In this document: in pieces, positions 44,121 to 44,337 of the stretch
Position numbering within the stretch: position 1 is the stretch's first letter
Layout of the letters: each line of letters opens with the position of its first letter
Origin: an uncultured Clostridia bacterium
GTDB taxonomy: Bacteria; Bacillota; Clostridia; Lachnospirales; Lachnospiraceae
Assembly: GCA_947383425.1 (NCBI GenBank)
Contig: CANDDE010000023.1
Coordinates: 1-49,849 of the forward strand
DNA: 49,849 bases
Reading direction: 5' to 3'
Made by a program: the position numbers and the translations under genes
The notes under the pieces: model-generated
What the model was told of the DNA's origin: nothing
The model's database searches: none
The model's input: only the letters and a program-made list of their open reading frames with translations

Positions 44121-44164
44121 TAAAAATAAGAAAAAGACTACAAAATTGTATCTTTCTAGTCTCA
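44121..44164 (-). terminator. terminator/attenuator-like hairpin between tRNA-like RNAs A and D
   Basis: Minus-sense GAGACTA-gaaagatacaattttg-TAGTCTT followed by TTTTCTTATTTTTA. An alternative pairing exists with an upstream GTCTCA element (44157-44164 vs 44204-44211). Confidence 0.4.
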
Positions 44165-44227
44165 TTTTGTTACCCTCTAATCGTGAAAGTTATTTTACGC
44201 TGTTTGAGACTATTCTTATTTTTAAAC

Positions 44228-44337
44228 AGGGACGACAGGAATTGAACCTGTGACACTATGAGGTATTAAAGATTTGCTGTTCGTGTTTTTCTAAACACAT
44301 TTGTTTCATATGCTCTACCCATCTGAGCTACGTCCCT
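44228..44337 (-). ncRNA. tRNA-like RNA A (perfect acceptor, D-arm, variable loop and T-arm, but 44-nt sequence in place of 7-nt anticodon loop)
   Basis: AGGGACG-TA-GCTC-AGATGGGTA-GAGC-A-TATGA[44 nt]TCATA-GTGTC-ACAGG-TTCAATT-CCTGT-CGTCCCT. The insert contains hairpin GTGTTT-AGAA-AAACAC followed by GAACAGCAAAT. Confidence 0.5.

Follow-up and report, generated by a model that had tools for sequence, protein, structure and literature searches.

The stretch of DNA discussed here, henceforth called the window, comprises 49,849 nucleotides (nt) of contig CANDDE010000023.1 (assembly GCA_947383425.1) from an uncultured Clostridia bacterium of the Lachnospiraceae. On its minus strand, four tandem tRNA-like genes lie in the interval that extends from the end of a rhamnose mutarotase gene (stop codon 44639) to an open reading frame of 520 amino acids (43932..42370). 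They are arranged in the order C, B, A, D, span positions 43995-44626 and lie directly upstream of that reading frame, which is on the same strand and encodes a DUF2828 protein with a von Willebrand factor A (vWA) domain. The distance of the units to the gene is 63-700 nt, unit D being separated from the start codon by 63 nt. Common to all four is a small RNA module, a hairpin followed by a short conserved motif, which also occurs in a circularly permuted form in the spacer between A and D. L-numbers, here and below, are identifiers of fetched loci; L001 and L002 are the two closest relatives. The features are:

44530..44626, minus strand: tRNA-like unit C, with a 7-base-pair acceptor stem, D arm and T arm (GGUUCGAAUCC) and the module at the position of the anticodon arm; Rfam tRNA score 47.6 bits with a 38-nt insert, 76.5 bits with our own covariance model R1
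44569..44595, minus strand: closed module of C, UUAUGUCU-AGAA-AGACAUAG-ACAGCAA, in RNA sense (U)UAUGUCU-AGAA-AGACAUA(G)-ACAGCAA
44373..44512, minus strand: tRNA-like unit B; Rfam tRNA score 50.5 bits with a 74-nt insert, 64.2 bits with model R1
44451..44476, minus strand: closed module of B, (U)GUGUUU-AGAA-AAACGC(A)-G-ACAGCAA
44412..44426, minus strand: second T-arm-like hairpin (UAGGUUCAAAUCCUA) in the insert of B, after the module; recognised by eye, folds as a hairpin
44227..44337, minus strand: tRNA-like unit A; Rfam tRNA score 51 bits, 86.2 bits with model R1
44274..44299, minus strand: closed module of A, (U)GUGUUU-AGAA-AAACAC(G)-A-ACAGCAA
44158..44211, minus strand: open (circularly permuted) module, formerly regarded as an 'orphan', AGUCUC(A)-A(A)-ACAGCGU, a loop of ~33 nt, (U)GAGACU
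44120..44157, minus strand: what is left of a second open module (AGAAAGAUACAA..UUUUGUAGUCUU), with a U-rich run behind it; recognised by alignment with L001 and L002
43995..44117, minus strand: tRNA-like unit D, adjoining the gene; 73.3 bits with model R1
44049..44075, minus strand: closed module of D, GAGACUU-GUAA-AAGUCUC-AA-ACAGCAU
42370..43932, minus strand: DUF2828 + DUF7788 gene, 520 amino acids, the presumed protein partner (by Pfam, PHROG and predicted fold)

In its closed form, the module consists of a hairpin of 6-8 base pairs with a tetraloop (AGAA in A, B and C, GUAA in D), 0-2 nt, and the motif ACAGCAA, for which unit D has the variant ACAGCAU. The original prediction had described a hairpin followed by RACAGC in all four tRNA-like inserts, and all copies are indeed at their places on the minus strand. 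The motif, too, is present, but its true form is longer and slightly looser than RACAGC, namely C-NN-RCNGCAA-UUUU with N mostly A. The 7-mer RACAGCR is found 35 times in the window, where 14.8 matches would be expected; most of them fall into coding sequence, and the short motif therefore cannot be used alone. A triplet of such matches within 64 nt (175-238, minus strand), for instance, sits inside a coding region, is driven by codon usage and has nothing to do with the module. The combination of a hairpin of at least 7 base pairs, a 4-nt loop and ACAGC occurs four times within this 550-nt stretch. Elsewhere, in about 100 kb counting both strands, hairpin plus ACAGC has three matches, two with weak 5-base-pair stems and one with 8 base pairs, and none of them continues to ACAGCAA.

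C, B and A exceed the threshold of the Rfam tRNA model (RF00005; 29 bits), yet the matches require that 38, 74 and 44 nt, respectively, are skipped within the anticodon loop. Unit D is not reported by this model and was found by our covariance model; it has an acceptor stem AAGAGUG/CACUCUU, a clear T arm and a long variable region, and a D-type unit is kept as the gene-proximal one in L001, L002, L007 and L063. With ordinary tRNAs and the tRNA arrays of phages the units share the acceptor, D and T arms, the tandem arrangement and the tertiary nucleotides U8, A14, G18G19 and GGUUCRANYCC. Unlike tRNAs, they have no 7-nt anticodon loop with a readable anticodon; in its place there are 38-74 nt with the hairpin and RCAGCAA, which implies that the units cannot decode. 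ARAGORN called none of the four a tRNA, nor did it find a transfer-messenger RNA (tmRNA). Rfam, searched over 43900-44700 both at the gathering threshold and at E ≤ 10, reported the tRNA family and sub-threshold, permuted matches to YrlA, and nothing else. With tmRNA the units have in common a tRNA-like acceptor/T-arm scaffold that carries a large functional insertion, and some related units even have G3:U70; they differ by the lack of a tag reading frame and of pseudoknots, and their inserts measure 25-75 nt.

Some details of the inserts deserve mention. In single sequences an enclosing 'anticodon' stem is seen, UAUGA/UCAUA around the 44-nt insert of A and GUAUG/CAUAC in D; it falls into insertion columns of both alignments and is thus outside the covariation scoring. 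The second T-arm-like hairpin of unit B throws MAFFT and the covariance model out of register; the second unit of L001 has the same extra hairpin in its insert. The acceptor pair G3:U70 was noticed in about 11-12 tRNA-like units, e.g., L016:493-611, L017:2854-2962, L020:2747-2856, L025:2853-2962 and L012:2704-2822. G3:U70 is the alanine identity element, which is also used by tmRNA.

Related loci were collected in two sets, all of them chosen via the DUF2828 protein. The bacterial set comprises 80 loci, one per GTDB species, whose homologues are 48-72% identical to the window protein; most are from Lachnospiraceae, Oscillospiraceae and Christensenellales, with a spirochaete and Bacteroidales among the rest. 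The viral set comprises 80 IMG/VR loci (53-66% identity), mostly on contigs of 60-190 kb. Most bacterial loci contain one to four tandem tRNA-like units with the module at the anticodon-arm position. A simple scan for hairpin plus ACAGC gave 100 matches on the gene strand and 23 on the opposite one in the bacterial set, with stems that are diverse in sequence yet complementary.

For 116 units an alignment was built in which the hairpin played no part in the selection rule. In each of the seven base pairs of the hairpin both positions vary, and about 90% of the cells are paired. The covariation score of the whole structure is 0.705, as compared to 0.209 for shuffled alignments, none of 500 of which reached the real value, and to 0.08-0.14 for slid controls. 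Left unaided, RNAalifold predicted the acceptor, D, module and T helices, 19 of 22 pairs covarying. Run over the 80 bacterial loci, the covariance model derived from this alignment gave 218 matches, of which 216 are on the gene strand, and 72 of these loci have one or more tRNA-like units with the module; about 150 matches score 49-117 bits, whereas genuine tRNAs do not exceed 45. In the model-aligned set the motif reads ACAGCAA 77 times, GCAGCAA 40 times and ACUGCAA or ACCGCAA about 12 times, and the logo extended to the flanks reads C(-3)-N-N-R-C-A-G-C-A-A-U-U-U-U. Among the tetraloops GNNA prevails (GACA, GUCA, GAUA); the AGAA of units A-C is an uncommon variant that the two closest relatives have as well. 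The module is not bound to one scaffold. In the minimal unit L009 2740-2828 the hairpin directly takes the place of the anticodon arm, in L009 ~2480-2590 the module resides in a long 5'/3'-stem scaffold unlike that of a tRNA, and in other cases it forms stand-alone permuted stem-loops or brackets whole or permuted tRNAs. Recurrence and covariation of the stem, two of the checks proposed in the original prediction, thus turned out strongly positive: the module is massively recurrent in related genomes, the stem covaries, and a chance similarity between recent duplicates fails on this ground. The view that it is a discrete portable RNA element, not a random expansion of an anticodon loop, is borne out by the same arrangement of helix, NN and RCAGCAA in several scaffolds.

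The second form of the module is present in the spacer between A and D. There, the original prediction had noted a fifth, partial copy next to a terminator-like hairpin with which it could alternatively pair. The copy exists (AGUCUC-AA-ACAGCG(U), 44211..44197), but it is not partial debris: its stem partner follows downstream (UGAGACU, 44164..44158), and both together make a conserved open module. The open form can be written as 5'-(U)AAG[x']-NN-ACAGCAA-(loop, median 38 nt)-[x]CUU(G)-3'. It corresponds to the closed module with the tetraloop cut and a loop joining the strands at the opposite end of the helix, and the helix ends CUU/AAG are common to both forms. In a strict census of the bacterial loci, the gene strand has 134 closed and 122 open modules, the other strand 2 and 27, respectively. 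By position and sequence, L001 2340-2400 and L002 996-1041 are orthologues of the open module of the window; there, too, the module follows the third unit and precedes the D-type unit next to the gene. In both relatives a second open module comes right after the first; its counterpart in the window has lost ACAGCAA and the loop. The spacer of the window folds well (z = -4.35), and the structure of minimum free energy (MFE) contains the open-module helix in place of the postulated alternative pairing. The supposed terminator hairpin is not supported either: a terminator scan of the spacer, which included the U-rich run at 44120..44157, called none. Because it aligns with the open modules of L001 and L002, is well-folded and is accompanied by no called terminator, the 'orphan' counts as a conserved element; it is neither debris nor an established attenuator. 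We also considered a role of this copy as terminator or antiterminator and rejected it: apart from the missing terminator call and the MFE fold, which keeps the module helix, promoter-like matches are at chance level (4 versus 3.0 expected).

The loops of the open modules have their own peculiarities. In 112 of 283 of them (18 expected by shuffling) we saw a hairpin of 4-5 base pairs with a 7-nt loop of the type YU-NNN-RN, which resembles an anticodon loop; examples are L001 2916-2974, L047 2285-2347 and L063 2762-2815. The 'anticodons' vary (UUU 22, UGA 14, UGG 11, GCA 10, CAU 6). A complete tRNA of 73 nt with the anticodon GUU is enclosed by an open-module loop in L057 2187-2295, L062 278-386 and L078 2472-2580.

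The protein family next to the module is largely phage-borne. By tblastn, DUF2828 homologues were found in at least 710 phage records, among them Felixounavirus, KVP40 and phages of Listeria, Staphylococcus, Bacillus, Mycobacterium and Campylobacter; gut Clostridia and their prophages commonly carry members of the family too, and one close homologue of the window protein has a prophage-like gene context. Modules are present in 79 of the 80 IMG/VR loci. Within 1.2 kb upstream of the viral DUF2828 genes, the gene strand has 365 copies of RCAGCAA and the opposite strand 3. Distant phages in which the DUF2828 gene abuts a tRNA array (Salmonella phage Mushroom, E. coli phage Bas63, Bacillus phage Nate, Mycobacterium phage Wilder) have open ACAGCAA modules on the same strand, next to the tRNAs or in the spacers that separate them. 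In Wilder (L086 ~4540-4660) and Bas63 (L282 10782-10907) the open module even encloses a permuted tRNA-like domain, i.e., T arm, closed acceptor, D arm. The settings of the module extend to phages of Proteobacteria, Actinobacteria and Firmicutes, and its strand-specific recurrence beside DUF2828 genes holds across phyla and phages.

The association was also approached from the opposite side. The pattern CTTGNCAAAGN6ACAGCAA has 114 matches in IMG/VR, of which 100 are at chance level and lack stem complementarity. Three families of tRNA-like modules emerged from this reverse test, two of them with DUF2828 nearby; the test was small and its outcome mixed, and we regard it as no more than suggestive. 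Outside any tRNA-like context, a hairpin-GNCA plus ACAGCAA with complementary stems was seen in AT-rich viral contigs (L213, L242, L277; L255, L274; L260, L280), and no DUF2828 gene lies within the stored stretches.

What kind of protein is encoded beside these RNAs? Pfam assigns DUF2828 (PF11443) with 119.6 bits (threshold 29) and DUF7788 (PF25043) with 144.2 bits (threshold 27.1) to the window protein. The metal-ion-dependent adhesion site (MIDAS) of vWA domains is recognisable as DGSGSM, and PHROG 850, 'RNA-binding protein', matches with E 4e-129. At E ≤ 0.01 Pfam yields DUF2828 and DUF7788 only and hence no TROVE domain; by sequence there is no match in the PDB or in NCBIfam, and the PADLOC defence library gave nothing meaningful for this protein. 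The AlphaFold2 model has a mean predicted local distance difference test (pLDDT) of 70.5; it is all-helical up to residue ~291 and continues with an alpha/beta domain. In Foldseek the top four matches of this model are Ro60 proteins: that of the Thermus phage phiLo (9l5y), Rsr of D. radiodurans (2nvo), Xenopus Ro (1yvr) and human Ro60 (9nen). They have a probability of 1.0, 490-550 aligned columns, thus nearly the full length, and template-modelling (TM) scores of 0.35-0.43; the following ranks are only isolated vWA/MIDAS domains. The predicted architecture, a helical-repeat ring followed by a vWA domain with MIDAS, is that of Ro60, seen in a model of moderate confidence. By predicted fold, the protein is a Ro60-like ring plus vWA, by sequence it is non-TROVE. 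To look near Ro-like genes had been among the checks suggested in the original prediction, and by its predicted fold the adjoining gene answers to this description.

Ro60 and its RNAs offer themselves for comparison. The partners of Ro60 in bacteria and phages, YrlA and Yrl1/2, are encoded beside the protein gene (YrlA on the same strand), have a short conserved motif near a terminal stem and are often tRNA mimics (PMC4201824, PMC12135203). Chen et al. (2014) found YrlA beside TROVE-annotated Ro60 genes and defined its motif as GNCGAAN0-1G; genomes with DUF2828 were outside that search (PMC4201824). In the ligand mode described for Ro60 a helix rests on the surface and a single strand enters the cavity (PMC4201824). 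The Ro60 of phage phiLo binds two CGAA-motif RNAs encoded upstream and forms a complex with PNPase (Nucleic Acids Research 2025; PMC12135203).

There are several similarities to the YrlA/Ro60 (Rsr) system (RF02553). Small RNAs, often in several copies, are encoded on the same strand as, and within a few kb of, a gene for a ring-plus-vWA protein; they combine a stem with a short conserved motif, which binds the protein in YrlA and presumably does so here, with a tRNA-like domain comprising D arm, T arm and acceptor; the module projects from the anticodon-arm position; and the permuted order of T arm, closed acceptor and D arm recurs in Wilder (L086 4548) and Bas63 (see above). There are differences as well. 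The window protein is DUF2828, not TROVE; the motif is NN-RCAGCAA-UUUU and not a GNCGAAN0-1G near the 5' end in a terminal stem; and the RNAs of the window end at the acceptor stem, i.e., have normal tRNA topology, with a closed tetraloop hairpin as the handle. The Rfam model of YrlA scores 26.7 and 23.7 bits in the window, far below its threshold of 69, and only in a register that spans two adjacent units; in the phage loci it has no match at threshold. Yrl1/Yrl2 of phiLo (PDB 9L5Y) are similar in that they are encoded just upstream of a phage Ro60-type ring, the best structural match of the window protein; in contrast, they are stem-bulge-stem structures with CGAA, and no tRNA-like body or RCAGCAA is described for them (PMC12135203).

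A related protein with a known activity is gp130 of phage Bas63 (bas63_0130), a true homologue (34% identity to the window protein, E 7e-83). According to the PhageMaP preprint it counters the Ppl defence, is Ro60-like by structure and is encoded directly upstream of tRNAs; its authors speculated that some of the annotated Bas63 tRNAs are Y RNAs (PMC11482910). The Bas63 tRNA array does contain open RCAGCAA modules; the three modules of this phage are at 82072-82138, 82239-82296 and 82781-82906 of MZ501086. They lie between the annotated tRNAs and are not reported in that work, which covers only the protein (PMC11482910); the window locus, in contrast, is chromosomal and has tRNA-like units instead of genuine tRNAs. 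A literature search for the RCAGCAA module retrieved no description, ACAGCAA combined with tRNA gave nothing relevant, and DUF2828 by name led to plant and tardigrade mentions only. Rfam 15 has no family for the module.

Taken together, we favour, as reasonably probable, the interpretation that the four units and the 'orphan' are small non-coding RNA genes whose products are Y-RNA-like partners of the downstream DUF2828/vWA protein, the module being the handle by which they are bound. A binding site of the DUF2828 protein is also the most likely role of the module as such, in the window and elsewhere, as judged from gene order, conservation and predicted fold. The RNAs would consist of a constant and a variable part. 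The constant handle would be a helix of 6-9 base pairs, one strand of which exits 3' into the single-stranded NN-RCAGCAA-UUUU. The variable body would be derived from tRNA: a full tRNA-like L-shape in the window, elsewhere a mimic of an anticodon stem-loop, a T arm, a permuted tRNA or a whole tRNA. By analogy to Ro60, the ring protein might hold the helix on its surface and the RCAGCAA tail in or near the central cavity, and the exposed tRNA-like body could then tether or decoy tRNA-binding factors. Closed and open forms have an identical local geometry, a helix strand that exits 3' into a conserved single strand, and this is just the kind of ligand that Ro60 holds. The best-supported description of the whole is a Ro60/Y-RNA-type system whose protein family and RNA handle are distinct and whose architecture exists in two permuted versions. 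As to its purpose, the context hints at tRNA maintenance or counter-defence: the linkage to tRNA arrays, the neighbouring genes, the anticodon-stem-loop-like loops and the phenotype of gp130 point in this direction.

Several observations weigh against this interpretation. All loci were picked through the protein, and the association is therefore in part one by design; of the module families from the reverse test, the one represented by L194/L220/L253 has no DUF2828 gene within ~5 kb. That DUF2828 binds the module is our inference, and the protein model is of moderate confidence (pLDDT 70.5, TM 0.35-0.43). RCAGCAA is also unlike the known Ro60-binding motifs GGUCCGA, GNCGAA and CGAA. Finally, expression of gp130 by itself, from a plasmid or T7, suffices to counter Ppl in the absence of the phage RNAs (PMC11482910). 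Either the RNAs are unnecessary for that activity or host RNAs can substitute for them.

Of the competing explanations, the least improbable one, though still unlikely, takes the module as a processing or maturation signal, or as structural punctuation, of tRNA-array transcripts, which would be read by an RNase or a tRNA enzyme of host or phage and not by DUF2828. The proximity of the protein gene would then merely reflect shared residence in the tRNA regions of phages. The open modules between genuine tRNAs in Felixounavirus and Bacillus phage arrays, their ability to bracket a whole tRNA, the one module-bearing tRNA-like unit without DUF2828 nearby and the activity of gp130 without phage RNAs (PMC11482910) would all comply with such a signal. 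Chromosomal loci like that of the window, however, have no genuine tRNA array at all, but only module RNAs and a DUF2828 gene, and a module that replaces the anticodon loop yields a non-decoding RNA, which is not what a signal for functional tRNAs should do. The presence of the module in 72 of 80 and 79 of 80 DUF2828 loci also argues against mere co-residence. A somewhat smaller chance is given to the idea that the open copies, the 'orphan' and those in leaders, are cis-regulatory mimics of the handle, by which transcription or translation of unit D and of the DUF2828 gene is autoregulated. Open modules do precede the start codon, after the last unit, in L001, L002, L007, L010, L030, L063, L072 and others, and a weaker hairpin with a U-run behind it overlaps the 3' strand of the helix in the window. 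Yet no terminator is called there, the MFE fold retains the module helix, and the 63 nt between D and the start codon of the window are devoid of a module. In phages, moreover, open modules also abound downstream of the gene and well away from its start, which fits independent small RNAs better than regulation in cis.

Two further explanations can be considered effectively excluded. That the units are genuine tRNA genes with a short spliced intron is highly improbable, although the cloverleaf is intact, C, B and A score above the Rfam tRNA threshold and the insert is in the anticodon loop. No 7-nt anticodon loop with U33 and a purine at 37 can be restored around the insert, the hairpin itself replaces the anticodon arm in minimal units such as L009 2740-2828, the same module is found outside any tRNA, and ARAGORN, which does handle introns, calls none. 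The group I introns known from bacterial tRNAs are far longer than inserts of 38-74 nt. Next to nothing, finally, speaks for a chance resemblance among recent tandem duplicates that have no function of their own. The hairpins of A and B are nearly identical (GUGUUU-AGAA-AAACRC), but the stems of C and D are different and compensated, and hundreds of independent copies with unrelated stems have kept RCAGCAA across phyla.

The interpretation as Y-RNA-like partners may be extended, more tentatively, to phages in general. The handle would then define an undescribed, phage-wide class of DUF2828 Ro60-like ribonucleoproteins, and its RNAs, with tRNA bodies or anticodon-stem-loop mimics of many 'anticodons', would act as decoys or tethers that shield phage translation or nucleic acids from host immunity. 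We regard this as conceivable but doubtful. If true, it would supply the RNA half of the counter-defence by Bas63 gp130 and explain why DUF2828 genes are linked to tRNA arrays in several unrelated phage groups. Irrespective of this, the handle points to candidate RNA partners for DUF2828, a large family of phage proteins with one member, Bas63 gp130, whose counter-defence activity has been shown by experiment (PMC11482910). With the handle defined, the ligand of the protein, the purpose of the tRNA mimicry and the RNA recognition by non-TROVE rings of the Ro60 type become testable. Annotation may profit as well: 'tRNA-like' genes that tRNA finders miss or mislabel are flagged, and so are spacers between tRNAs and small reading frames as probable RNA genes.

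Two cases of the latter kind are bas63_0137 and bas63_0138 (L282 10749-11023; MZ501086 82748-83022), small hypothetical coding sequences which run antisense to the open module with the permuted tRNA-like domain and are probably mis-annotated RNA genes. In Salmonella phage Mushroom (L085, NC_041923.1, 5540-9365), the feature table places the tRNAs opposite to the DUF2828 gene, while Rfam puts all of them on the same strand; this is a discrepancy in the table or the record.

Among the neighbours that recur in the 160 related loci, a Band_7/SPFH protein is encoded upstream in 48 and is also represented by gp52 of Mycobacterium phage Wilder; a class-V aminotransferase resembling cysteine desulfurase (Aminotran_5) follows downstream in 33, and a protein of 464 amino acids with a sub-threshold RNA_ligase match is found in 21. 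Examples are L139 92-991, L042 4698-5798 and L042 5834-7228. The window has none of these three types. Further upstream in the window (45060-49582, minus strand) there are genes that look like candidates for defence or toxin functions. They encode an 839-amino-acid protein with Hsp70/actin-like ATPase motifs and no family match, a NUDIX protein that matches PDC-S07 (E 9e-15), and a HipA-like protein of 371 amino acids that matches PDC-M03A of PADLOC (E 8e-10) and is accompanied by a partner of 79 amino acids.

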